A stretch of DNA of 64,000 nucleotides from an uncultured bacterium (lineage in GTDB: Bacteria > Omnitrophota > Omnitrophia > Omnitrophales > Aquincolibacteriaceae). Every line of letters starts with the position of its first letter. The stretch's first letter is position 1. Below are positions 2,578 to 57,158 of this stretch, one piece after another. The notes under the pieces were generated by a model. That model was not told where the DNA came from and made no database searches. It saw only the letters and a list, made by a program, of their open reading frames with translations. A program made the position numbers and the translations under genes. Location of the stretch: positions 82,468 through 146,467 of the forward strand of contig CAZLTL010000002.1 in NCBI GenBank assembly GCA_964562525.1. The letters are read 5' to 3'.

Positions 2578-2612
2578 GGTCTTTAGTCGGTAGTCTTTAG
2601 TCGGTAGTCTGT
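2578..2612. promoter_or_regulatory. Tandem heptamer array (GGTCTTT AGTCGGT AGTCTTT AGTCGGT AGTCTGT) ending 14 nt before the cysE ATG
   Basis: Five contiguous 7-nt units of consensus (T)AGTCTN read directly; the same unit type and the same 14-nt spacing to a start codon recur at 32431..32465. Confidence 0.4.
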
Positions 2613-22300: not shown

Positions 22301-22885
22301 GTGAAAAAATCTCTCCTCTTTTGGATTTTGGTTTGTTCTCTGCAGGTGGGCTGCGCCGCGATTTACGGCTGGAATATTCACGCGCCCGGACTTTTATCCG
22401 ATGAATTTGCGCGCGATATTCCGCAAGTTTCAAAGCGTGTCGCGCTTTATATTCCCGAAGGCCAAAAAGAATTTATCTCCAAAGACAAAGGGACGTTTTG
22501 GTCGGATCCGCAAACCTATTACATCGGCGAGGCCTTTGTCCCGATGCTGATCGAGTCTTTTCAAAGCGGCTTCACAGAATTTATTTTAATGGAGGCTTTG
22601 CCCAATCCCGACATCATGAATCAGTACGCGATTGATGCCGTGGTGGTTTCCGAAATCAAAGATTTTTCAAACCGTAAAACTTTACCTGCGCAAGGGCTTG
22701 ATATTTATACGGAAACAACGGTGTTTAACCGTGATTTAAAACTCATTCGCCGCTTTGAAACTCGCGGCACCAGCGAAGCGAAAGGAACATTCGCCAAAAA
22801 AGGCGGATTGGAAGTAAATCTCAATGCTGCGATTGAAGGAAACCTGCGTGAAACCGTCTTACAGGTGCAGGAGGCAATTAAATGA
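22301..22885 (+). CDS. Hypothetical lipoprotein
   Basis: Signal peptide with lipobox ..LQVGC|AAIYG; 4-nt overlap with the next ORF. Confidence 0.5.
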   Translation: MKKSLLFWILVCSLQVGCAAIYGWNIHAPGLLSDEFARDIPQVSKRVALYIPEGQKEFISKDKGTFWSDPQTYYIGEAFVPMLIESFQSGFTEFILMEALPNPDIMNQYAIDAVVVSEIKDFSNRKTLPAQGLDIYTETTVFNRDLKLIRRFETRGTSEAKGTFAKKGGLEVNLNAAIEGNLRETVLQVQEAIK

Positions 22886-23526
22886 AGTACGGAGACCAGC
22901 GGCCGGAGGCCAGAGGGTTGTTAGTTTTAAGTTTAATTCTTTGTTTTTCTCTCGGCGCACCGGCCTCCGGCCTCCAGCCCGTGTTTGCCAATGAAGTTTT
23001 GAATTCGCAGGAAATAGCCATGCCGTCTTCCGGTGCCGCTGTCATGGTTCGCGAAAACTCCAAAACCGGCACGCCTTATATCGTGATCACGGATCCCAAA
23101 GCTCCTCGATCTGATTTGGCCTCGCTTGATTCCAACAAATATCGCCGACCCGATTACCGCATGCTCGAAAAAAACGTGACCGCGAAAGATGTCGGGTATG
23201 ACGGTCCGTATAGTTCCAAGAAGAAAATATATATTCTCGCCGCAAGTTTGGCGGTTGCCGGAGCTGGAGCGGCGATCGCGGCGCCTGCGATTGCGCCTGC
23301 CGCGGCCGCAACCGGAGCTGTGGGAAGTGCCGCAGGTCCTGCCGTTGCAGCTGTTGGCGCAGGATCGGCATTAGCCGTAGCGGCAAAAAAATATCAGGAT
23401 CATTTCGAAAACCTGCCCGACGATTACAGCCGTGAATCGGAATCAAAAATCATCGAGACGGAAACGGACTTTTATCAAATGTATGTATCAAAGGTCGATA
23501 GGCGACCTTTTCAAAATCAGAACTGA
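22882..23526 (+). CDS. Hypothetical secreted protein with an Ala/Gly-rich low-complexity segment
   Basis: Signal peptide; ..AASLAVAGAGAAIAAPAIAPAAAATGAVGSAAGPAVAAVGAGSALAVAA.. Confidence 0.45.
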   Translation: MKYGDQRPEARGLLVLSLILCFSLGAPASGLQPVFANEVLNSQEIAMPSSGAAVMVRENSKTGTPYIVITDPKAPRSDLASLDSNKYRRPDYRMLEKNVTAKDVGYDGPYSSKKKIYILAASLAVAGAGAAIAAPAIAPAAAATGAVGSAAGPAVAAVGAGSALAVAAKKYQDHFENLPDDYSRESESKIIETETDFYQMYVSKVDRRPFQNQN

Positions 23527-27396: not shown

Positions 27397-27839
27397 GCTC
27401 TGAATAAGATCCCGAATCTAAGGAAACAGATCCGGAATTTGTGCCGGTTCCGGGCTTTTGCAACCGCCTTCGCTTCTTTGTCTTTAAAATAAATTTGCTT
27501 TCCCCCTTGAATATGGGGATAGATCGTGCACCCTTTAATCATAGGCACGATTTTGAAGCTGTACTCAAAGGAGGCCATATGAACGAAGATTGGGATATCG
27601 AATAACAGCATTCCGCTAAACTGATATTTCGCTTGCTCTGATGGTCTGCGACCACAGGCAGTACTCGCTTCGCTGTTAAATACCGCGGAAGCATAAGCAA
27701 ACCCCTGACCGCGCGCATGCCTTTGTATTACCCCGATCGATGATTTAGCCTCCCTCTGAAAAAGCATATCCCCGCTATAAGCCCTTTGTCCGCGCGCTCA
27801 AAATGGATTCATTGAAATAGATGAACCAAGCGAGGCGTT

Positions 27840-28115
27840 ATGAAAAAATATTTGTTTGTAAGTACTGTCGTTGTTCTTGTTTTAATTTTTAGCGCTCCTG
27901 TTTTTGCTTATTCGGTTTCGGTTCAAGCCAAACTTCAAAATACGTGGGAACAAAAAGGTTCGCTTTGGGATGGAGCGGCGCTTCTGTTTTCGAATTTCAA
28001 AGCCGGCCAAAATAAAAATGCGGGCGTTGCTAAAGTGACGCGGCCGGTTGTGGTGCAGGAGCCGGAGTGGAGTCAGCAGTTGAATTCGATGCGTGCGTTT
28101 GCAACATCAGCTTAA
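27840..28115 (+). CDS. Small hypothetical secreted protein
   Basis: Signal peptide MKKYLFVSTVVVLVLIFSAPVFA; 91 aa; followed by a hairpin plus T-run inside repeat family D. Confidence 0.4.
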   Translation: MKKYLFVSTVVVLVLIFSAPVFAYSVSVQAKLQNTWEQKGSLWDGAALLFSNFKAGQNKNAGVAKVTRPVVVQEPEWSQQLNSMRAFATSA

Positions 28116-28119
28116 TTTG

Positions 28120-28200
28120 CTCAGTCGCCGCATGGCTTTTGTCCTCACCGCCGGACGGGCTAGCCGCTCCAAAGCCGCGGCTGGCTTCGGAAAGCCTTTT
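28120..28200. repeat. Repeat family D, copy D1
   Basis: CTCAGTCGCCGCATGGCTTTTGTCCTCACCGCCGGACGGGCTAGCCGCTCCAAAGCCGCGGCTGGCTTCGG; compare D2. Confidence 0.6.
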
Positions 28201-28202
28201 TT
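28176..28202 (+). terminator. Hairpin plus T-run inside repeat D1, after 27840..28115
   Basis: GGCTTCGGAAAGCC followed by TTTTTTG. Confidence 0.4.
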
Positions 28203-28213
28203 GCTACGGTATT

Positions 28214-28240
28214 TTTTGAACAAATGATTTTGTTCAAAAA
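28214..28240. repeat. Perfect 12-4-12 palindrome TTTTTGAACAAA-TGAT-TTTGTTCAAAAA
   Basis: Read directly; the arms resemble the family-B terminal inverted repeats (..GTTCAAAA..). Confidence 0.5.
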
Positions 28241-28329
28241 CACCTGTCGCTCAAGCGCCGATCTTTAAATAAAAGGGAATCGTTGATTTCCGCGATGCCG
28301 CAAAAAAGTGCTTTCCTGTATAAAGCAGA

Positions 28330-28402
28330 GGCGGTTGCCTTCGGCGTTTCCCGTCTTATTGCTTCCTCAGCTCGTGAATCTCGCTTCGGAAGCTGGCGCT
28401 TG
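28330..28402. repeat. Repeat family E, copy E1 (immediately upstream of arsR)
   Basis: ..TTGCCTTCGGCGTTTCCCGTCTTATTGCTTCCTCAGCTCGTGAATCTCGCTTCGG.. Confidence 0.65.
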
Positions 28403-28428
28403 ACTATATCTGCTTATGCAGATATAGT
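28403..28428. promoter_or_regulatory. Perfect palindrome ACTATATCTGC-TTAT-GCAGATATAGT abutting the arsR start; candidate ArsR operator
   Basis: 11-bp arms with a 4-bp spacer read directly; ArsR/SmtB repressors classically bind inverted repeats overlapping their own promoter. Confidence 0.5.
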
Positions 28429-28785
28429 TTGATTATGAAATTGAAAGACACGCAGGTTATTTTTGGGGCTTTGGCGGACGCGACGCGTTTCCGTATTTTG
28501 AATTTGCTCTCCGAAGGGGAGCTTTGCGTTTGCGACATCATGCAGGTTTTAAAAGCGCCGCAGTCGAAGATATCTCGGCATTTGTCTTATTTGCGCCGCG
28601 CGGGGCTTGTGGATGCGCGCAAAGAGGGCCTGTGGATGCATTACCGGCTCGCTAAGCCGAAGATCAAAGTTTTAAAGGCGGTGTTTCAGTCTTTCGGCTG
28701 CTGCCGAGAAGATTTTGCCGAGCTACAAAATGATTTGAATGAATTTCGTAAAAATAAAAACTGTCTAGTCTCTTGCTGTAAGTGA
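28429..28785 (+). CDS. arsR: ArsR/SmtB family metalloregulator
   Basis: wHTH with the canonical ..ELCVCDIMQVL.. metal site in helix alpha-3; C-terminus ends ..NCLVSCCK; a perfect palindrome abuts the start (TTG 28429 or ATG 28435). Confidence 0.8.
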   Translation: MIMKLKDTQVIFGALADATRFRILNLLSEGELCVCDIMQVLKAPQSKISRHLSYLRRAGLVDARKEGLWMHYRLAKPKIKVLKAVFQSFGCCREDFAELQNDLNEFRKNKNCLVSCCK

Positions 28786-28814
28786 TTTAGTTAAAATCAA
28801 AGGGGGTGAGAATC

Positions 28815-28850
28815 ATGGACGGTTGTTGCGGAAGCGGATGCTGCAAATAG
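28815..28850 (+). CDS. Candidate 11-aa cysteine-rich micro-ORF (MDGCCGSGCCK) between arsR and acr3
   Basis: SD AGGGGGTGAG lies 4 nt upstream of ATG 28815; four Cys in 11 residues; it ends in CCK like the ArsR C-terminus. Not in the ORF track because it is under 60 aa. Confidence 0.3.
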   Translation: MDGCCGSGCCK

Positions 28851-28927
28851 GCATTCCAATCACTCCCCACAAAGATGATGACGATCATCTTTGCCGGGAG
28901 TTTTTAAACATATGAAAAGTTGAATCG

Positions 28928-29989
28928 ATGCAAAAGCTTTCTTTTTTAGACCGGTATTTAACAGTTTGGATTTTTGCGGCCATGGCCGTGGGCGTGGCGC
29001 TTGGGTATTTCTTTCCCGGCGTTGAACGGGTTATTAATTCATTTCAAGTTGGCACGACGAATATTCCCATCGCGGCAGGACTCATTCTGATGATGTATCC
29101 ACCCCTTGCCAAGGTTCGCTATGAAGAACTGGGGGATGTTTTTAAGAATAAAAAAATTCTGATTCTAAGCCTCATCCAAAACTGGGTGATCGGTCCGGTG
29201 CTCATGTTTGTTTTGGCGGTTCTTTTTTTACGCGACCAGCCCGAATATATGGCCGGCCTTATTTTAATCGGCCTCGCGCGCTGTATTGCCATGGTGATTG
29301 TTTGGAATAAACTCGCCGAAGGCAATTCCGAATATGCCGCGGGGCTTGTGGCCTTCAACAGTGTGTTTCAGGTTTTATTTTTCAGCGCATACGCCTATTT
29401 CTTTATTTCATTTTTACCCAAGCTTTTCGGTATGGAAAGTTTCGCCGTAGCGGTTTCTATGCGCCAAATTGCCGAAAGTGTTTTTATTTATCTCGGCATT
29501 CCGTTTCTGGCGGGCATGATCACGCGATTCAGTTTGCTTAAAGCAAAAGGCGCCGCTTGGTATGAAAATCAATTTTTGCCCAAAATTAGCCCGCTAACTC
29601 TCGCGGCTTTGCTTTTCACCATTTTGATCATGTTCAGCCTCAAAGGAAATTACATCGTTCAAATCCCGCTGGATGTCGTCAAAATCACGCTCCCGCTTCT
29701 GATTTATTTTGTCGTCATGTTTCTTTTCAGTTTTTGGATGTCAAAAATAGCCGGCGCTGATTATTCCAAATCCGTCACGCTTTCATTCACCGCTGCGAGC
29801 AATAACTTTGAGCTCGCCATCGCGGTTGCCATCGCTGTTTTCGGCGTGAATTCCGGGCAAGCGTTTACCGCCGTGATCGGGCCGCTTGTCGAAGTGCCCG
29901 TCATGATTGGCTTGGTGCATGTTGCATTTTGGATTCGCGGAAAATATTTTAAAAATATCGAGATCAAACAAACCGAGGGTTGCTGCTGA
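28928..29989 (+). CDS. acr3: Arsenite efflux permease, ACR3 family
   Basis: 10-TM BART-superfamily profile; N-terminal ..[16 protein letters not shown].. and ..[17 protein letters not shown].. are typical of ACR3. Confidence 0.85.
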
Positions 29990-29990
29990 T

Positions 29991-30410
29991 ATGAAAAAAA
30001 GTGTTTTAATTCTCTGTACGGGCAATTCATGCCGCTCGCAAATGGCAGAGGGCATTTTGCGGCATTTCGGTTCCGATAAGTTCAATGTTTTAAGCGCGGG
30101 CACAAAGCCGTCAGTTGTGAACAAGACTGCAATTAAAGTGATGCAGGAAATCGGCATCGATATCTCAGAGCATCGATCGAAACACATTGATGAGTTTTTA
30201 GGTCAAAAAATAGATTTTATTATTTCAGTTTGCGACAATGCCAAAGAATCTTGCCCGATCTTTCCGGGCGGAACGACTCGTCTGCATTGGCCGTTTCCGG
30301 ATCCGCCTCACGACAAAGATATTACCGAAGCTGTTTTGAATGAGTTTCGGAAAGTGCGTGATTTGATTCTTGTTCGGTTTAAGGCTTTGGGGGAGACGGG
30401 GAAGTTTTAG
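29991..30410 (+). CDS. arsC: Arsenate reductase (thioredoxin-coupled LMW-PTP type)
   Basis: ..VLILCTGNSCRSQMAEG.. P-loop C-x5-R; downstream Cys and Asp residues; ATG 29991 lies 1 nt after the acr3 stop (the track ORF starts earlier at 29907). Confidence 0.85.
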   Translation: MKKSVLILCTGNSCRSQMAEGILRHFGSDKFNVLSAGTKPSVVNKTAIKVMQEIGIDISEHRSKHIDEFLGQKIDFIISVCDNAKESCPIFPGGTTRLHWPFPDPPHDKDITEAVLNEFRKVRDLILVRFKALGETGKF

Positions 30411-30487
30411 ATTTCTTGTCGCTACTGCTCTTGGCTTGTCATCCTCGCGAATGCGGGGATCCAGTGATTGACTCTCATGATGGTTCC

Positions 30488-30565
30488 TCGACTTGAAACT
30501 CTTCGTCTGCTCAGACAGTCGCGTCCGTTGGCGCGAAACTCGCATTCGAAGAGTTTCAATTCGAG
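30488..30565. repeat. Repeat family C, diverged partial copy C5 (reverse orientation, 3' of arsC)
   Basis: Reverse complement ..GAGTTTCGCGCCAACGGACGCGACTGTCTGAGCAGACG.. parallels the C core GAGTTCTGCGCCGAYAGGACGCAGCTGTYTGAGC. Confidence 0.4.
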
Positions 30566-30611
30566 TCTCTTCCGCAAAAGGGGCGGTGGGCTGTCAAAGG
30601 AGAAAGCCTTG

Positions 30612-30682
30612 GCTTTGCCTTCGGCGTTTCCCGTCATATTTGCCCCCTCGGCTAGTGAATCTCGCCTTTGGGAGCAGTTTTT
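30612..30682. repeat. Repeat family E, copy E2 (downstream of arsC, same orientation as E1)
   Basis: ..TTTGCCTTCGGCGTTTCCCGTCATATTTGCCCCCTCGGCTAGTGAATCTCGCCTTTGG.. is about 80% identical to E1. Confidence 0.65.
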
Positions 30683-30743
30683 ATCCTCAAAATATCGGTT
30701 GCGATTGATTTAAAATCTGACAGAATTCACAGCAGACTAAAGA

Positions 30744-30775
30744 CCAAAGACTGACGACCAATGACTTTTTCAGAG
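30744..30775. promoter_or_regulatory. Tandem heptamer array in inverse orientation (AGACTAA AGACCAA AGACTGA CGACCAA TGAC) upstream of the 30822 island ORF
   Basis: Reverse complement of the TAGTCTN unit, four or more copies; it forms an imperfect inverted repeat with the 32431..32465 array across the island ORF. Confidence 0.4.
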
Positions 30776-30821
30776 CCAGTATCTTTGGAAATATTCCGAT
30801 CCCTGCTGCGATAAGGACTTC

Positions 30822-32381
30822 ATGAGAATTGTTAGGCTTCAAAAAGCGGTTAGTATAATTGCTTCGGAAATTCGAAATAATATTGAGAATCATCGTCTGC
30901 CCAAATTGGTTCGAGATGAAATAAAGGCAATCATTTCAGAGTATGTGGAAGAAATCTATAAAATCGCGGCCGTAAACTCTCTTGAAAAGCGAATTGTTGA
31001 GTTGAAGAAGGCGGATCTATCTTCTATAGCAAAAGTTTTGGACATTATTTTAGAATACCATCCCCCCAAATATACTCTTACTTTTGCGGATGAAAAAACA
31101 AGAGAAGTTGACCCGATACAAAAGATCAATGAGCTTAAGAGTTGGATTTCCAATGCTGATGGCAATCAAATTAAATTGGGCTCAATGGAAATATTATTTC
31201 GATTGGAGCTTGTTTTTGATTCCAAAATGAATGAGATAATGATGGCTTTTGAAAAGAGAAGCCCTGTTTTTAAGAGAGTCAAACAAGATGTTCTTGCTAA
31301 ACTTAAAAAAGTTAGAAAAGATGACCTGTTATTGTTGTGGGCAGATTTGAAATCTAAGTTTCGAAATAAAGATGATGATCATCACGGCTACGTTTTTTAT
31401 AAAGATATTATTCCTGAGGATTTTTGGGATATATCACCCAAGTCAATTTCGTTAGATGAGGTGGCGGAAAGATATGCAGATTTTATTGTCGAATATAAAC
31501 CGCTTACTGTGCGGAGAATGATAGCTGAAGGTTACAATGCTTACCCAGTTGGGCCATTGGGGATTGCCCGCAGCCTAGCCCTCTCCTCATCTCAAGGAAA
31601 AAATAATGTTTCGGAGTTTGATGTGTTGGTAATTCGAACTTTAAGCAAAGTTATTAGCCTTTTTGAGAAAATTACATATGCAAATAAATCAGAACTAGCC
31701 AGAGCTATTAACGCCAATCAAGACTCGTTTGTTTTTGACGGTGAGTTTTTTCAAGCCGCAAAAAAAGAATTGGAGGAAATGCGAAATAATTCGTCGGTGA
31801 GTTTTGTGGAAAGCCTTTCAGCGTCTATGGAAAGATTAAATAGCTACGCCATGGAAAATCAAAGTTCTGGCTCTAAAGTTGAAAGACTGCTCTTTAACTA
31901 TAAGCTCTCGCGTGAGGTTTCGCCCCCTGATATTTCAGCTGGTAAGAAAAATGAAATAGCTCTACAGAAGGATCTTTGTAAGTTTCTCATAGAGAATGAT
32001 ATTGTTGCATATGGGAAAATCTTTGGTAGAAGCCAAATTGATTTTTATATAAAAGAAGGGGAGCTTCCGATTGCTGAAGAGTATGTTGTGGAAACAAAAG
32101 TTTTTCGTAGAGGCAGGGCTGTTAATCCAAGTGTGATAAAGGCAAATTTAGTGCAGTTGCAATCTTACATGGATATTCACAAGCAGCCGCGCGGTATTTT
32201 GGCTATTTATAACTATTCGGATGATTTGATTTACGTGCCCGATAAACGTTGGTTGCATGGACAATACTGGATATTGGTGGTTAATATTGGGACAGCAACA
32301 GCAAGCAAAAGGAAAAGGTCTTTAAAAATCGTTGAATCAAGCAGCCCCAAAAATTTGATAGATATAATAGTTAATGCGTAG
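30822..32381 (+). CDS. Hypothetical 519-aa protein in an AT-rich (probably acquired) segment; no recognisable domain
   Basis: Long uninterrupted ORF at roughly 37% GC against a ~50% background; flanked by inverted heptamer arrays. The C-terminal region (..QIDFYIKEGELPIAEEYVVETKVF..) has a D..E.K arrangement faintly reminiscent of PD-(D/E)xK nucleases; this is inference only. Confidence 0.55.
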   Translation: MRIVRLQKAVSIIASEIRNNIENHRLPKLVRDEIKAIISEYVEEIYKIAAVNSLEKRIVELKKADLSSIAKVLDIILEYHPPKYTLTFADEKTREVDPIQKINELKSWISNADGNQIKLGSMEILFRLELVFDSKMNEIMMAFEKRSPVFKRVKQDVLAKLKKVRKDDLLLLWADLKSKFRNKDDDHHGYVFYKDIIPEDFWDISPKSISLDEVAERYADFIVEYKPLTVRRMIAEGYNAYPVGPLGIARSLALSSSQGKNNVSEFDVLVIRTLSKVISLFEKITYANKSELARAINANQDSFVFDGEFFQAAKKELEEMRNNSSVSFVESLSASMERLNSYAMENQSSGSKVERLLFNYKLSREVSPPDISAGKKNEIALQKDLCKFLIENDIVAYGKIFGRSQIDFYIKEGELPIAEEYVVETKVFRRGRAVNPSVIKANLVQLQSYMDIHKQPRGILAIYNYSDDLIYVPDKRWLHGQYWILVVNIGTATASKRKRSLKIVESSSPKNLIDIIVNA

Positions 32382-32430
32382 AAAAAAGGTGCTGCGCACC
32401 AAAGGGACAAGTAAGTTTTGACCTGAATTA

Positions 32431-32465
32431 TAGTCTGTAGTCTTCAGTCGTTGGTCGTTAGTCTT
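32431..32465. promoter_or_regulatory. Tandem heptamer array (TAGTCTG TAGTCTT CAGTCGT TGGTCGT TAGTCTT) ending 14 nt before ATG 32479
   Basis: Five contiguous 7-nt units; immediately followed by SD AGGAG. Confidence 0.4.
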
Positions 32466-32478
32466 AATAGGAGTATTT

Positions 32479-32955
32479 ATGGCAAAAGTTAAAAAAGCAA
32501 AAGCAGTGAAGGCGCCGAAAGCGCCGAAGAAGTCAAAAGCGGTGGAAGCGCCGTTTATGCCGACGATTGTTGAGGGGCTGGCGAAGCTCGTTGAGCGGCT
32601 TGAGATTGTTGAGCGCAAGATTGATCAGGTGAATAGCCGTATTTCGAACACGCTTTTTGAAATTCGCGACAACCTTCAGCAGAACACCCGTCAAAATGCG
32701 TCGCATGAACAAAACCCTTATGGATATTCGCGTCCTCAGGCACCGTTGCCGCAGCGCCAAATGTATCAAGTGATTTGCGCGGACTGTAAGAAGAACACGG
32801 AAGTGCCTTTCAAGCCGGGCGATCGTCCCGTGTATTGCAAAGAATGTTTCGCCGCCCGCAAAGCGGGGAATGTTCCTGTCAGCGCCCCCAAACCCGCTGC
32901 GCCCGTTGCTGTTATCGAAAAGAGCGGCAAAGTGAAGACCAAGAAAAAGAAATAA
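32479..32955 (+). CDS. Lys-rich (histone H1-like tails) coiled-coil protein with a C-terminal CxxC-x16-CxxC zinc ribbon
   Basis: N-terminus AKVKKAKAVKAPKAPKKSKA; central coiled coil; ..CADCKKNTEVPFKPGDRPVYCKEC..; C-terminus ..KVKTKKKK. SD AGGAG precedes ATG 32479. Its 3' end abuts a MITE-like element that is followed by a diverged duplicate of the gene tail. Confidence 0.5.
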   Translation: MAKVKKAKAVKAPKAPKKSKAVEAPFMPTIVEGLAKLVERLEIVERKIDQVNSRISNTLFEIRDNLQQNTRQNASHEQNPYGYSRPQAPLPQRQMYQVICADCKKNTEVPFKPGDRPVYCKECFAARKAGNVPVSAPKPAAPVAVIEKSGKVKTKKKK

Positions 32956-32969
32956 AGATTTTCGGATTT

Positions 32970-33128
32970 AAATTTTGTTTTTTGTTCAGCGATTCAATTC
33001 CGCCGCGAGTTCTGAGCGAAGCATCAGCTGTGTGAGCGCCGGAATGAATCGCGGAGCCCGCGCCGGCTCCGGAGGCGCAAGGCCATCCGCCGGTGAGGAT
33101 AAAAAGCCTATCGGCACCTGAGATAATC
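32970..33128. repeat. Repeat family C (about 150 bp), copy C1, sitting in the 3' end of gene 32479..32955
   Basis: ..TCCGCCGCGAGTTCTGAGCG...CAGCTGTGTGAGCGCCGGAATGAATCGCGGAGCCCGCGCCGGCTCCGGAGGCGCAAGG...GAGATAA.. is about 85% identical to C2 over ~140 bp. Confidence 0.7.
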
Positions 33129-33130
33129 CC

Positions 33131-33186
33131 GCCCCTGTCGCGGTTGCTCAAGCCCCCACAAAAGCAAAGACCAAGAAAAAGAAATA
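33131..33186 (+). pseudogene. Diverged duplicate of the 3' tail of gene 32479..32955 (..PVAVAQAPTKAKTKKKK*), separated from the gene by repeat C1
   Basis: cctgtcgcggttgctcaagcccccacaaaagcaaagaccaagaaaaagaaataa translates to PVAVAQAPTKAKTKKKK-stop. The gene itself ends ..PVAVIEKSGKVKTKKKK-stop with the identical final 21 nt. Confidence 0.5.
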
Positions 33187-33194
33187 ATTTTCTC

Positions 33195-33232
33195 AAGCCC
33201 CGGACCGCCTTTGCGGATCCGGGGTTTTTTAT
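33195..33232 (+). terminator. Rho-independent terminator downstream of 32479..32955 and its duplicated tail
   Basis: CCCCGGACCGCCTTTGCGGATCCGGGG followed by TTTTTTAT. Confidence 0.75.
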
Positions 33233-33359
33233 TTCCGCCCTCTGATTCTATTTATAGGTTAAATCAATGAACATTAATTAAATTATCTATTTTATAAATG
33301 CCTACTCCGGGCGTTATATTTCTCGCGAATGGCATTGTTTCAAAAGCAAGAGGAGGCGT

Positions 33360-33485
33360 TATGGAAACCTTGATCTTTGTGGCGATGGGAGCTTTGATTT
33401 TAGGGGGTGCTGTTTATGCGCGTTACAAAGCCCTCAAATCAATGGCGGTTGCGCGGGTGATGCCGCGTCGAGCGAGCAGGAATTA
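33360..33485 (+). CDS. Candidate 41-aa single-TM micro-protein
   Basis: SD AGGAGG lies 6 nt upstream of ATG 33360; METLIFVAMGALILGGAVYARYKALK.. is one TM helix plus a basic tail. The track shows a longer 62-aa ORF from 33298. Confidence 0.3.
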
Positions 33486-33536
33486 GTATTTGCGGTTTTG
33501 CCGATGTGCGGCAAAAAAATGAAATAGGAGGGTGAA

Positions 33537-33863
33537 ATGCTGATTGTCACAACGCCTTCGGTTGAAGGCCAAAAAATAAAAAGTCATTTGGGGCTGGTTA
33601 CGGGTGAGGTGATTTTGGGCGCAAACATATTTAAAGATTTGTTTGCCGGAATTCGCGACATCGTTGGCGGTCGAGCGGAAGCCTATGAAAAAGAATTACG
33701 CAAAGCCAAAGACCTTGCTGTTCAGGAAATGATCCAAAACGCGAAACAGCTGGGCGCCAACGGGATTGTCGGTGTTGATTTGGATTATGACTCCATTACC
33801 GCCAACAGTAGCATGTTGATGGTGAGCGCGAGCGGGACAGCGGTTGTTTTTGAAAACAGTTAA
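33537..33863 (+). CDS. ybjQ: YbjQ/UPF0145 family protein
   Basis: ..[52 protein letters not shown].. is the characteristic UPF0145 pattern. Confidence 0.7.
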
Positions 33864-33884
33864 AGGGTAGCTGAGGAGGGGCGT

Positions 33885-34793
33885 ATGGATTCGGAACATC
33901 GTTCAATTTTAACTTTGGCTTTGATGGCTGCTTTTGCTGATCGGCACAAAGCGGACGCGGAGCGTGACGCAATTAAAAAGGTCGCCGAGTCGCTTTCTCC
34001 GGGAGCGGGTGAAAATATACCCGCGATTTGTCAGGATATTTTGTTGATGCGCATAAGCTCCGAACAAGCCGTTCAAGGATTGACTCGCCCCGAAACTCGG
34101 CGGTTGGCCTATGAGATGGCGGTTTGCGTGTGCGATTCGGATGGCGAGCAGACGCCTGATGAAAAAGCGTTTCTCAAAAATTTAAGCACTCAGCTGGGGC
34201 TCGATAAAAAAGAGGCTGAACAGATGAGTCAGCAGGCTGATACGTTGGTTGCGGCTCCGATTCGAGAGACTTATTCCGCTCCACAAAACACCAACGATCC
34301 CATGATATTGAATTATTCGATTTTAAACGGCGCGCTTGAGCTTTTGCCCGATTCGATATCGTCTTTAGCCATTATTCCTCTGCAAATGAAGATGGTTTAC
34401 CGTATCGGCAAGAGTTATGGTTTTGAATTGGATCGAGGGCATATCAAAGACTTCATCGCGACCGCGGGCGTGGGGCTAACATCCCAGTATCTTGAAAAAA
34501 TCGGCTCCAAGATTATCGGGAAAGTGATCGGTAAAGCCGGCGGAAAGATTTTAGGCGGGTTAGGACGGCAAGCGACAAGTTCCGCATTTTCTTTCGCGAC
34601 GACTTACGCGTTAGGACAGGTTGCGAAAACTTACTATGCCGGCGGGCGAAAATTAAGCACGGCTGATTTAAAAGCGACATTTCAAAATATTTTCAATCAG
34701 GCGAAAACGATGGAGTCACGCTATCAGGGGGAAATGGCCGAGAAGGCGAAGACGTTGGATCTCAAACAAATTTTAGCTTCGGTAAGAAATTAG
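33885..34793 (+). CDS. Hypothetical protein with a TerB-like N-terminal region and a Gly-rich C-terminal region
   Basis: ..LTLALMAAFADRHKADAERDAIKKVAE.. and a second ..LAYEMAVCVCDSDGEQTPDEKAFL.. repeat (TerB-like pair); C-terminus ..GKVIGKAGGKILGGLG.. Confidence 0.45.
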   Translation: MDSEHRSILTLALMAAFADRHKADAERDAIKKVAESLSPGAGENIPAICQDILLMRISSEQAVQGLTRPETRRLAYEMAVCVCDSDGEQTPDEKAFLKNLSTQLGLDKKEAEQMSQQADTLVAAPIRETYSAPQNTNDPMILNYSILNGALELLPDSISSLAIIPLQMKMVYRIGKSYGFELDRGHIKDFIATAGVGLTSQYLEKIGSKIIGKVIGKAGGKILGGLGRQATSSAFSFATTYALGQVAKTYYAGGRKLSTADLKATFQNIFNQAKTMESRYQGEMAEKAKTLDLKQILASVRN

Positions 34794-34812
34794 AAGCGTT
34801 TTCAAAGAGAAA

Positions 34813-38059: not shown

Positions 38060-38110
38060 GAACACGGCGCTTGTGGTCGTAGACCATTCCTTTCGCCTCA
38101 TTCGCAAGAA
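38060..38110. repeat. Repeat family D fragment D3
   Basis: ..GGCGCTTGTGGTCGTAGACCATTCCTTTCGCCTCATTCGCAAG.. matches the D2-specific insert plus flanks. Confidence 0.4.
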
Positions 38111-38194
38111 TCATTCCCTTTACCGCGCATGTTTCTCAACATTGCCTTGCTGAAAAAAAACAAATCAGGATGGAAATTTAGAATAGCAAAAGCT

Positions 38195-41355: not shown

Positions 41356-44061
41356 ATGAATATCGTGGATAGTTTTAAAAGCAAATCGGTTCTCAAGGTC
41401 GGCAATAAAACCTTTTCTATTTTTAAACTGTCCGCGGTAAAAAGTCTCGCAGGTCTTCCGCTCGAACAGCTTCCGTATTCCGTCCGCATTTTAATCGAGA
41501 ATCTTTTGCGTCGCGAAGACGGCAAATCGGTTTTAAAAGCCGATATTGAAGCGCTACGTAATTGGAATCCGAAAGAAAAATCTCAGAAGGAAATTGCTTT
41601 CACGCCCGCGCGCGTGATCTTGCAAGATTTTACCGGTGTGCCTTGTGTGGTGGATCTCGCTGCGATGCGCGACAAAATGAAAGAGTTTGGCAAGGACCCG
41701 AAGAAAATCAATCCGCTTGAACCCGTGGATTTGGTGATCGATCACTCTGTTCAGGTGGATGCGTTTGGTAATGCCGGCGCGCTTGCTGAAAACACCCGTA
41801 TTGAATTTGAACGCAATCAAGAGCGGTATGAGTTTTTGAAGTGGGGACAAAAAGCGCTTTCTGATTTTCGCGCCGTTCCGCCGGGTATGGGCATTGTCCA
41901 TCAGGTTAATTTGGAATATCTCGCGTCGGTTGTTATTACCAAAAATGTGAATGGTGAAACGCTCGCTTATCCCGATACCTTGGTCGGAACCGATTCGCAT
42001 ACCGTCATGATTAACGGTCTCGGCGTTTTGGGTTGGGGCGTGGGCGGTATTGAAGCCGAAGCCGCGATGCTCGGTCAGCCTTCCTCGATGCTGATTCCGG
42101 AAGTTGTGGGCTTTAAATTTACCGGCAAACTTCCCGAAGGCGCGACCGCAACAGATCTAGTTTTGACTGTGACGCAAATGCTGCGCAAAAAAGGTGTGGT
42201 TGAAAAGTTCGTTGAGTTTTATGGCTCAGGTCTCGATTCGCTTTCACTTGCCGACCGCGCGACGGTGGCGAATATGGCGCCTGAATACGGCGCGACGATG
42301 GGTTTCTTTCCTGTGGATGACGAAGCCGTCAACTACTTGCGCGTTTCCGGACGCAGTGAAGAACAAATCGCATTGATTGAAGCTTACTTGAAAGAACAGG
42401 GGCTTTTCCGCACAAAAAATTCTCCCGACCCGGTTTTTTCCGACACGCTTGAACTTGATCTTGGCACCGTCAAGCCTTGTCTTGCCGGTCCGAAGCGTCC
42501 GCAAGACCGCGTGGCGCTGTCCGATGTGAAAGCTAATTTTCAAGCTGCCGTTCCGGGCTTTCAGATTTCCAAGGCGGGTTCTTCCGCAGCCGTTGCAACT
42601 TTGGAAAAAGTAAAAGTGAAATATGCCGGCCAAGAATTTGATTTGGAAAATGGCGCCGTAACGATTGCTGCGATCACAAGCTGCACGAATACATCGAATC
42701 CGTCGGTGCTTATGGCTGCGGGGCTTGTCGCGAAAAAAGCCGCCGCGCTGGGACTTAAAGCCAAGCCGTGGGTGAAGACTTCGCTCGCGCCGGGATCGAA
42801 AGTGGTTACTGAATATTTGCGAGCGTCCGGGCTTTTGTCCGAACTTGAGAAAACCGGTTTTTTTGTCGTGGGTTACGGCTGCACCACTTGCATCGGAAAT
42901 TCAGGGCCTTTGCCGGAAGAAATCGGCAAAGCCGTAAAAGATAATAACTTGGTCGCCGCCGCCGTGATTTCGGGCAACCGCAATTTTGAAGGCCGTGTGA
43001 ACCCGCTTGTGAAAGCGAACTATCTCGCATCGCCGCCGCTGGTTGTGGCTTATGCGTTGGCGGGCTCGGTTGAAAAAGATCTCACCACCGAGCCGGTCGC
43101 GAATGACAAAAACGGCAAACCTGTTTATCTCAAAGATATTTGGCCATCGAACAAAGAAGTTGCCGACGCCGTCGCGCAAGTGACGCGCAAAATGTTTGAA
43201 AAAGAATACTCCGTTGTTTTTGACGGTGATAAAAATTGGCAATCCATTCAAGTTGCCGAAGGCGATACTTTTAAATGGAGCGATAAATCGACTTACATCA
43301 AAAAAGCGCCTTACTTTGACGGTATGCAGGCGGAGCCCGCGAAATTAAACGACATTAAAGATGCGCGTGTTTTGGTGATGGTGGGCGACTCGGTAACCAC
43401 GGATCATATTTCTCCCGCGGGCAATATTGCTAAAGACGGTCCTGCAGCGAAGTATTTGATGGATAACGGCGTGACGGCAAAAGATTTTAATTCTTATGGC
43501 GCGCGTCGCGGCAATCACGAAGTGATGGTGCGCGGAACTTTTGCGAATATCCGTTTAAAAAATTTGATCGCACCCGGCACGGAAGGCGGCGTGACGCGTC
43601 TTTTGCCTGATGGTAAAACAATGTCGATTTTTGATGCCGCGCAGGAATACGCAAAAAAGAAAACACCGTTGATTGTGATCGCGGGCAAAGAATACGGCAC
43701 GGGTTCATCGCGCGATTGGGCTGCGAAAGGACCGATGTTGCTTGGTATCAAAGCCGTCATCGCGGAAAGCTTTGAACGTATTCACCGCAGTAATTTAATC
43801 GGAATGGGAATTTTGCCGCTTATTTTTACCGACGGACAAACTCCCGCGTCATTGGGTTTGACAGGCGAAGAAACCTTTACGATTGAGGGTATTTCAAGCA
43901 TTAAACCAGGACAAGTTGTTAAGGTGCGAGCCTCGGGGCTCGGGGCTCAGGCCTCCGGACTTGAATTTAGTGTTAAATGCCGCATTGATACGCCGGTGGA
44001 GCTGGAATACTTCAAACACGGCGGGATTTTACAGTATGTCCTCCGCCAGCTCATCAAGTAG
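41356..44061 (+). CDS. acnA: Aconitate hydratase A
   Basis: ~900 aa; Fe-S ligand Cys (..SCTNTSNP.., ..[10 protein letters not shown]..); ..[10 protein letters not shown].. swivel-domain motif. Confidence 0.9.
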
Positions 44062-56291: not shown

Positions 56292-57158
56292 TTAAATCTG
56301 CGGCGGCGGGGCAATTTCATCGATTGGAACCGATTCCGGAATTTCTATTTCCCACGCCTCATCCGGAAAGCCCGGCTGAAGCGTGACATTTGAAATGTTC
56401 ATGACCGTTCGGTCTTCCGTTTCGGGGTGGGTAACAATGGTTTGCGGCGCGTAATAAAACTTCGTATTGATCCGGTCAAATTTATTTTTCATTCTCTTGA
56501 ATTTTTCGCGCACGATGACCGTGGTCGCGGTGCCGTCGGGCGTCAAAAAAGTTTCATGCTCCACTTGCCCATGCTTATTTAAAATAATCCGCCGCGCCAT
56601 ATAACGGATGCTCTGATAGGGCTTCGCGATTTCAATCTCCATGCCTTCGCCCACACCGTTTGCGCTTACGGCCTGGTCTTCAGAAAAAGGCTCGGGCGAG
56701 GCCGCGCGGTAAAGATCGAGCGGTTTGAGGTGACTGTCAAAATCCAGAGAATACTCCAGCTGGTACATATTCCCGAACCAGGCGCGGTTCATTCCCGGCA
56801 TATAAAGCATAAAATCCAAGTCATCGTTTTTGAAAATAAAAACCGGCAAACCCGATTCGCCCATGCAATCCATCAGAAGTTTTTTTCGCAGAGGATCAAA
56901 AAGCAAAGTGCCCGAACAGCGGCTTTGCGCGCCGTTCGCTTTATAAAAAAGTAATTCAATCGACGCGGCGAAAGGCGTCCAGTTTTTATTGCGGAAATAA
57001 GTATCGGTCGCTTGCTTCAGTTCGAGAACCGTTTTCGGCTCAGCCGCAAAAGCAAAGCAGGTAAAAGATAAAAAGGTTGCGAGAAAAACCAGAGACCGTA
57101 GGCCGGTGCTTTGGGTCCCGCCTTTGGGCTTCGGGCTCCGGGCTACTTTAAAGTGCAG
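56292..57158 (-). CDS. Hypothetical secreted protein (possibly LolA-like fold)
   Basis: Signal peptide ..LRSLVFLATFLSFTCFAFAAEP..; the track ORF extends to 57188 and overlaps pgsA, so the true start is probably internal. Confidence 0.45.
   Translation of the reverse strand: MHFKVARSPKPKGGTQSTGLRSLVFLATFLSFTCFAFAAEPKTVLELKQATDTYFRNKNWTPFAASIELLFYKANGAQSRCSGTLLFDPLRKKLLMDCMGESGLPVFIFKNDDLDFMLYMPGMNRAWFGNMYQLEYSLDFDSHLKPLDLYRAASPEPFSEDQAVSANGVGEGMEIEIAKPYQSIRYMARRIILNKHGQVEHETFLTPDGTATTVIVREKFKRMKNKFDRINTKFYYAPQTIVTHPETEDRTVMNISNVTLQPGFPDEAWEIEIPESVPIDEIAPPPQI

Follow-up and report, generated by a model that had tools for sequence, protein, structure and literature searches.

A putative single-protein defence nuclease from a variable gene slot of an Omnitrophota genome, and the period-7 repeats that face each other across it

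What is a single low-GC gene doing between an arsenic-resistance operon and a zinc-finger gene, with short arrays of heptamers facing each other across it? This question is raised by a 64-kb stretch (the window) of contig CAZLTL010000002.1 from an uncultured bacterium of the phylum Omnitrophota, in which an open reading frame (ORF) of 519 amino acids (aa), named ORF519, occupies positions 30822..32381 (+). A sequence-only reading had proposed that the gene and its two arrays form a minimal mobile cassette, and that the protein might serve defence or abortive infection. We consider it rather probable that ORF519 came by horizontal transfer, as the cargo of a slot between arsC and the zinc-finger gene whose content varies by strain, and that it encodes a stand-alone anti-phage nuclease. 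The arrays represent a class of short period-7 repeats of the host lineage, found above all at gene starts and in leaders, and are not part of the element. To our knowledge, the defence biology of Omnitrophota is almost unknown.

ORF519 is foreign, as its low GC content and its absence from the orthologous position in relatives show. Its GC content is 0.369 and its GC content at third codon positions (GC3) 0.340, against 0.45-0.52 and 0.45-0.57, respectively, for twelve other genes of the window, and it is the GC minimum among all 1560-nucleotide (nt) segments of the 64 kb (z = -4.2). Pfam and PADLOC searches with the protein gave zero matches. The sequence-only reading had described an acquired ORF, lower in GC than its neighbours, without a domain recognisable by eye and set between the ars module and a Lys-rich zinc-ribbon gene, and all of this holds. 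On the 5' side lie the genes for ArsR (28429), an ACR3/SBF carrier (28928) and a low-molecular-weight phosphatase (LMWP)-type ArsC (end at 30410), and on the 3' side a Lys-rich treble-clef zinc-finger gene (ATG at 32479). The relatives compared include a sister strain, the Candidatus Omnitrophica metagenome-assembled genome GCA_003535755.1 (L148/L149), and the loci L146, L151 and L128-L130. The slot and its surroundings consist of the following features.

27397..34812, no strand: variable island of about 7.4 kb between the ABC-F gene and a trypsin-like protease gene, missing in L151
30615..30675, + strand: conserved non-coding segment, the left homology flank, 80-85% identical to L146 and L148
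30783..30821, + strand: leader and ribosome-binding region, moderately conserved before three different cargo genes (three-way alignment)
30822..32381, + strand: ORF519, the slot cargo gene, a candidate stand-alone defence nuclease (ORF call, translation, ATG start)
32382..32430, + strand: conserved right flank, starting at the stop codon and containing the hairpin GGTGC-TGC-GCACC (alignments)

The ABC-F protein encoded in the window (25465), most of whose named matches come from Omnitrophica/Omnitrophota, is 96% identical to that of the sister strain. There the genes likewise run ABC-F, small genes, ArsR, ACR3, ArsC, and in L148 the ars operon has 88.6% nucleotide identity. The next gene of the sister strain 3' of arsC is a 604-aa AIPR gene (PF10592, E = 2e-42) with a GC content of 0.371 against 0.461 for its locus. 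In L146, whose zinc-finger gene is 91% identical at the nucleotide level, the slot holds three small ORFs of 162, 64 and 122 aa. Aligning the window with both L148 (AIPR) and L146 (small ORFs) places the swap boundaries. The left flank is common to all three up to about window position 30675 and gives way to a variable promoter stretch of about 105 nt. This is followed by the leader, which begins CTTTGGAAATATTCCGATCCCTGC and runs directly up to the ORF519 ATG. The right-flank segment GAAAAAAGGTGCTGCGCACCAAAGGGACAAGTAAGTTTTGA stands 3' of all three cargo stop codons, those of ORF519, of the AIPR gene in L148 and of the 122-aa ORF in L146. The homology of flank, leader and right flank in these alignments means that the exchanged unit is essentially the coding sequence plus part of the promoter.

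The slot has conserved flanks (a non-coding segment of about 60 nt and a leader on the left, a stop-codon hairpin segment on the right), between which the cargo differs by strain; recombination between homologous flanks would be the simplest account of the exchange. The three alleles sampled so far (ORF519, AIPR and the small ORFs) combine conserved slot flanks with alternative defence cargo in related genomes, the hallmark of a defence hotspot. Such hotspots have conserved flanking genes and variable defence cargo, for example in the E. coli pan-genome (PMC10121019). The present slot resembles them in its conserved flanks and in the alternative, compositionally foreign, defence-type cargo of close strains. 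Unlike them, it is very small, takes a single gene, has boundaries tens of nucleotides from start and stop codons and sits inside a metal-resistance island, with three alleles seen. It would be a very compact defence hotspot, in which single genes are swapped between conserved untranslated flanks, and such flanks offer a practical handle for finding more cargo genes in uncultured lineages.

The slot belongs to a larger variable block. In L151, whose ABC-F protein is 88% identical, the trypsin-like gene comes directly after the ABC-F gene, and we therefore delimit 27397..34812 as a variable island. It carries small ORFs, arsR-ACR3-arsC, ORF519, the zinc-finger gene, a YbjQ (heavy-metal-binding) gene and a TerB/DUF697 gene. 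The zinc-finger gene of L151 is found at another locus, surrounded by metal-efflux genes.

The flanks have peculiarities of their own. A second copy of the left-flank segment (about 55 nt) lies at 28335..28394, just 5' of the arsR promoter, and the two copies are 88% identical; in the relatives the segment occupies L146 101-161 and L148 15526-15587. It can form a GCC-UUCG-GGC hairpin and a 6-bp stem GCTCCC/GGGAGC, which in copy 1 shows a compensatory change to GCTTCC/GGAAGC, and it has no match in Rfam. The right-flank hairpin (32388-32400) resembles a terminator, with a T-run, on the minus strand only; no minus-strand gene lies to its right, though it is kept after three cargo genes.

The protein encoded by ORF519 is predicted to combine a large helical domain with a nuclease domain, divided as follows.

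30822..31931, + strand: N-terminal helical domain, residues 1-370 (AlphaFold2 model, conserved residues)
31935..32378, + strand: C-terminal PD-(D/E)xK nuclease domain, residues ~372-519 (motif, secondary structure, profile matches)
31953-31955, + strand: codon of E378
32040-32042, + strand: codon of D407
32091-32093, + strand: codon of E424
32097-32099, + strand: codon of K426
32154-32156, + strand: codon of Q445

The full-length AlphaFold2 model, with a predicted local distance difference test score (pLDDT) of 92.1 and a predicted template modelling score (pTM) of 0.83, is helical over residues 1-366, apart from one small hairpin, and alpha/beta over residues 378-518. In the second part, a helix (378-391), three strands (395-401, 404-411 and 420-428), a helix (436-452) and a strand (457-464) follow one another in the alpha-beta-beta-beta-alpha-beta order that the PD-(D/E)xK fold demands. 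The catalytic signature of this fold (an acidic residue in helix 1, D in beta-2 and (D/E)xK in beta-3) is present, and E378, G398, D407, E424, K426, Q445, Y449 and N488 are invariant in 62/62 members of the family alignment from which residue conservation was read. Placement of the predicted protein in the PD-(D/E)xK superfamily is well supported by motif and topology, and what began as a hint drawn from a D..E.K spacing has gained an invariant D407, E424 and K426 and a modelled core.

Profile and structure comparisons point the same way, at low scores. The family profile matches the McrC nuclease domain (7vsr_M, 6hz4_M) with E = 0.002 over a region spanning D..ExK..Q, and Hjc weakly. Among the 62 members, weak Pfam matches are to NERD (9/62), PDDEXK_9 (6/62) and also Mrr_cat and Hjc, and PADLOC matches are to LmuA (10/62, best E = 8.6e-9) and Cas4 (5/62). 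Foldseek searches of the PDB and BFVD with the ORF519 model found no significant match (best PDB E > 0.1); the best-ranked neighbours at E > 0.1, namely MspJI, McrC, BamHI, FokI, Hjc, Cas4 and SPARDA, are all PD-(D/E)xK proteins, and Mrr-like phage proteins are further non-significant neighbours. The helical domain, in which D65, K160, W173, L357, K361 and E365 are nearly invariant in the 62-sequence alignment, was also modelled separately (pLDDT 93.2, pTM 0.87), and a Foldseek search of the PDB with this model found no neighbour (best E = 1.1, probability 0.05). This rare family has neither a Pfam nor a PADLOC model, and its confidently folded 370-residue domain is without a structural match in the PDB. 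The fold of this domain is, with the repeat turnover described below, the part that most deserves further attention.

An exhaustive search identified 175 family clusters among 1.84 billion representatives, most of them 500-530 aa long and aligning end to end, while a word-indexed search returned only 8 clusters among 5.8 billion. One member has a public name, a hypothetical protein of Legionella septentrionalis; a literature search on WP_127111604, the single public accession in the family, found nothing. The family gene recurs in defence or mobile-element surroundings. It lies beside AbiEi/AbiEii and an integrase at L003, with a type I HsdR and DUF4747 at L005, with HNH and AbiJ at L141, and with a DACNV-DAC cyclase and a VRR-NUC-like protein at L140. 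Resolvases, a TIR protein and Xre-type helix-turn-helix (HTH) genes on both sides accompany it at L001, a RelA/SpoT-like protein at L144/145 and an ankyrin-repeat protein at L136. An all-against-all BLAST of 74 neighbouring ORFs and five window genes found no protein common to different loci, so that the family gene appears, from this comparison, to act alone. These contexts, together with the AIPR allele of the sister strain, make a defence role for ORF519 plausibly supported, and to that extent the guess of a defence or abortive-infection protein stands.

A few homologues carry additions. Lys-rich tails (KKKxKKK...) end P0002, P0010, P0011, P0012 and P0013, whereas the window protein has none; such C-terminal tails would fit nucleic-acid binding. 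P0040 has a C-terminal HTH, and in P0117 (1074 aa) TPR repeats precede the nuclease domain. These divergent members, with one TPR and one HTH addition, gave nothing informative.

We turn to the arrays, of which the window holds two beside ORF519 and one far from it.

30734..30768, listed on the + strand, in reverse orientation to ORF519: array A1 (AGACTAA AGACCAA AGACTGA CGACCAA TGACTTT), 54 nt 5' of the ATG
32431..32465, + strand, forward: array A2 (TAGTCTG TAGTCTT CAGTCGT TGGTCGT TAGTCTT), in the leader of the zinc-finger gene
2578..2612, + strand, forward: array A3, five units of the same heptamer family as A1 and A2, before the ATG (2627) of a hexapeptide acyltransferase gene

A1 and A2 together make a 33-nt inverted repeat, 82% complementary, which flanks ORF519 as the sequence-only reading had said; it had placed the downstream array correctly and the upstream one 10 nt off, at 30744..30775 instead of 30734..30765. 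The last GTC stands 18 nt before the ATG in both A2 and A3, and these arrays end 13-14 nt before it. A three-unit GACY heptamer pattern has 9 matches in the window and 0 in 100 shuffles. The in-register matches are 28/35 for A1/A2, 25/35 for A1/A3 and 26/35 for A2/A3, and random arrays drawn from the pool of 15 units reach 28/35 or better with P = 0.30. The A1/A2 inverted repeat is simply two copies of one repeat family in opposed orientation. L128-L130 have no ORF519, a zinc-finger protein that is 87% identical and a methyltransferase 5' of it; at the A2 site they keep a three-unit array (TAGTCTG TAGTCTT AAGTCTT), 19 nt before the zinc-finger ATG. This array, kept without ORF519, indicates that A2 belongs to the leader of the zinc-finger gene and not to ORF519. 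A2 varies among relatives by whole 7-nt units and lies 50 nt outside the right swap boundary, and A1 falls within the variable promoter stretch of the slot. At the A1 position, L148 and L146 have degenerate forward GTC units followed by GGGCTATAAT, and A1 is missing from both.

Three alternatives have to be weighed against the reading of ORF519 as a defence nuclease in a slot with host repeats around it. One takes ORF519 and its two opposed arrays for a minimal mobile cassette, non-autonomous and transposon-like or dependent on a recombinase, and it draws its appeal from the 33-nt inverted repeat around a low-GC single gene and from two of the three arrays of the 64 kb lying within 1.7 kb of each other. 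A cassette with terminal inverted repeats has them at the ends of the insert, moves them with the element and leaves a target-site duplication. At this locus, the sequence just inside each array (30783-30821 and 32382-32430) is still homologous to that of relatives with other cargo; the inverted repeats are therefore not at the ends of the swapped segment, which stops short of them on both sides. In L128-L130, which lack ORF519, A2 is kept in place before the zinc-finger gene. We found no target-site duplication (the outer flanks TTCACAGC and AATAGGAG differ), no transposase or recombinase among the annotated neighbours, and no heptamer array in the homologue loci L001-L005 (later metagenome loci were not scanned). 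Moreover, the likeness of A1 to A2 does not exceed their likeness to the unrelated A3. We regard such a cassette as very improbable; that a foreign gene lies between short host repeats of opposed orientation does not argue for one. We also rejected a variant in which a close inverted pair of arrays was there first and received ORF519, since the intervals between the arrays and ORF519 are common to relatives with other cargo. An unlikely, if less far-fetched, alternative makes the arrays cis-elements shared by ORF519 and the zinc-finger gene, either as sites of one regulator or through A1-A2 RNA pairing that couples expression. The predicted RNA duplex of A1 with A2 reaches -34.6 kcal/mol, compared with -11.9 +/- 3.3 for shuffled A2, arrays stand 18 nt before two start codons, close inverted pairs with very stable hairpins occur at a fixed site in three strains, and it has been proposed that heptamer repeats ahead of start codons serve post-transcriptional regulation (PMC4679880). 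But A1 pairs equally well with the distant A3 (-32.2 kcal/mol) and is missing in both slot-sharing relatives, and the unit at one site can differ fully between strains (AGTCTKN versus CTCGGGN), which argues against a sequence-specific binding site.

The remaining alternative, which we hold to be possible but not likely, accepts the nuclease and gives it a non-defence role in a variable region, as a toxin or addiction module, or as a mobile-element enzyme for recombination or repair. PD-(D/E)xK domains do serve many roles, resolvases or integrases occur at some homologue loci (L001, L003), Xre-type HTH genes stand on both sides at L001, and the neighbours in the window are metal-resistance genes. 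Yet no conserved antitoxin or partner gene appears among the loci compared, no relative of the family was found in 2.9 million viral contigs, the family recurs beside Abi, restriction-modification and TIR genes, and an AIPR gene takes the same slot in the sister strain. The preferred reading, that of a stand-alone anti-phage nuclease, has its own difficulties. The case for defence is one of guilt by association, built on about ten loci; next to ORF519 itself lie metal and stress genes, none of them for defence; a recognised defence gene occupies the slot in one sister strain only, and the three small ORFs of L146 have no known link to defence. Recombination in the flanks is something that we infer, and A1 stands where relatives have a TATAAT box. 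If the preferred reading is right, the ORF519 protein would act alone against phages or mobile elements; the helical domain may detect a sign of infection or restrain the nuclease, and the activated nuclease would cut DNA, either the invader's or, in an abortive-infection mode, the cell's own.

As a defence protein, ORF519 would be an uncharacterised instance of an established type, the stand-alone defence-island nuclease. Shedu (SduA, DUF4263) is a single-gene defence nuclease of this type, with a PD-(D/E)xK domain and a variable N-terminal domain, and is found in defence islands. ORF519 likewise would be one protein with a PD-(D/E)xK nuclease and a non-catalytic N-terminal domain. The window protein, however, has no SduA match, the PADLOC matches of the 62 members (to nine profile families in all) do not include SduA, and DUF4263 is not among the Pfam matches listed. 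With McrC, Mrr, NERD and Cas4, ORF519 shares the E...D...ExK...Q residues in its C-terminal ~150 residues and the alpha-beta-beta-beta-alpha-beta core. It differs from McrBC in having no neighbouring McrB-type AAA+ GTPase, and its likeness to McrC is limited to about 95 residues of the nuclease core, the 370-residue N-terminal domain being unrelated; all these similarities lie under family thresholds. A likeness to Lamassu LmuA (PDLC03853) shows in P0091, whose residues 273-436 align to positions 434-595 of the 655-position profile, that is, over the helices ahead of the nuclease core and the first half of the core. The window protein itself, however, has no LmuA match, and no SMC-like LmuB or LmuC was found at any locus. 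ORF519 is like AIPR (PF10592) in being a single large gene of low GC content (0.371 in the latter) in the exact same slot; the two have no sequence relationship, and AIPR is an alternative cargo, not a homologue. Should ORF519 prove to be a stand-alone immune nuclease, the anti-phage repertoire would gain an uncharacterised family of about 175 clusters.

The three arrays are part of a wider pattern. According to Tandem Repeats Finder (TRF), 13/30 short tandem repeats in the window have a period of 7 or 14, and 9/13 period-7 arrays fall within -100..+80 nt of a likely gene start. Such zones make up about 19% of the sequence, so that about 2.5 would be expected, and the excess corresponds to roughly P = 1e-4 (a rough estimate from small numbers). 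Taken singly, the arrays show no RNA structure (z = 0.1, with 0.11 for A2, and 1.0). At the A2 site of L146 another heptamer takes the place, CTCGGGN in four units (L146 1470-1500). The CTCGGGG/GGGCTCC heptamer family is also found inside two genes of the window, at 43927-43955 and 57126-57144.

Turnover of units can be followed at a second site. An inverted pair of heptamer arrays lies at the start of an orthologous gene of about 210 aa in the window (22882-22985), in L151 (7455-7530) and in L148 (7780-7860). The units are unrelated among the three strains (GGCCGGA, GACTATG and ACCAGGA), and each pair folds into a stable hairpin (z = -2.3, -6.5 and -9.4). At this gene start the site and the 7-nt period of the arrays are kept, and the sequence is a different one in each strain. 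From this site, with its three unit types, and from the zinc-finger leader, with AGTCTKN or CTCGGGN, one could build a bolder combined reading. An active, lineage-specific process would write 7-nt-periodic repeats, often as inverted hairpin pairs, at fixed gene-start positions and replace the units between strains; the ORF519 pair would be a long-range instance that links the 5' end of the transcript of a defence gene to its 3' end, and ORF519 would encode a new immune nuclease that works as a single protein and has an unprecedented sensor fold. We think this combination quite unlikely as a whole. Why period-7 repeats are enriched at gene starts, and why their position is kept while their sequence is replaced, are nevertheless questions that this lineage could help address.

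Comparable repeats are on record. TAACTGA heptamers occur as direct repeats of 2-6 units in Beggiatoaceae, cyanobacteria and Bacteroidetes, vary between strains by 7-nt steps and are the proposed regulatory sites mentioned above (MacGregor 2015, PMC4679880). Like them and like the cyanobacterial short tandemly repeated repetitive (STRR) heptamers, the arrays described here are short, have 7-nt units and are mostly intergenic, forward and near a start codon. They further share with the TAACTGA repeats the 7-nt steps between strains, stop codons in several frames of the forward copies and unstructured RNA. A2 and A3 have this leader geometry and A1 is the exception, being reversed and 54 nt upstream. 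Unlike TAACTGA, the units here are AGTCTNN/GACYNNN (AGTCTKN / xGACYNN), another repeat family of the same class, and in this lineage the unit of one site can be wholly replaced between strains. The arrays probably influence transcription or translation initiation in the genes next to them.

Arrays also occur next to promoter elements. In relatives, forward GTC heptamers are followed by a consensus TATAAT box without a good -35 element (L133 7590-7626, L146 176-225 and L148 15580-15632), and in L133 and L146 the box comes exactly 10 nt after the last GTC. This suggests that arrays can overlap promoters as well as leaders. In the window, a sigma-70 promoter scan gave a site count not above that of shuffles and no site 5' of ORF519, an Rfam scan of 28-34 kb returned noise only, and no tRNA was found in the 64 kb.

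GACY heptamer arrays, including close inverted pairs, are found in many phyla (contigs L008, L018, L019, L024, L026, L033, L022, L070 and L101); as the genome scan itself selected for the GACY motif, it is silent on the conservation of that motif. The matches listed for a five-unit GACY pattern come from unrelated phyla, the genome of the window not being among them. Among the matches listed, close inverted GACY pairs, 10-160 nt apart, come from Thermomicrobia, Acidobacteriota, Blastocatellia, Flavobacteriales and others; in cyanobacteria, Planctomycetota and Verrucomicrobiota, long and perfect tandem arrays of 7-nt units are common.

Some smaller features surround the slot. A minus-strand ORF of 71 aa (30637..30422), called in one assembly (L007), is probably no gene, since L146 does not keep its ATG; for the same reason we rejected the idea that A1 serves it. 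Between arsC and the slot, at 30487-30565, there is a strong hairpin with arms of 24 nt (88% complementary) and a loop of 31 nt, kept in part in L146 and L148. Just 5' of arsR, a perfect-looking palindrome, ATATCTGC-TTAT-GCAGATAT (28403-28428), lies between TTGACT and TATAGT hexamers and is probably the ArsR operator inside the arsR promoter. Finally, the window segments 27498-27605 and 38087-38159 are 79% and 88% identical to L128 4489-4599 and 4789-4861, respectively, on a contig that is otherwise non-syntenic, and they may be dispersed non-coding elements.

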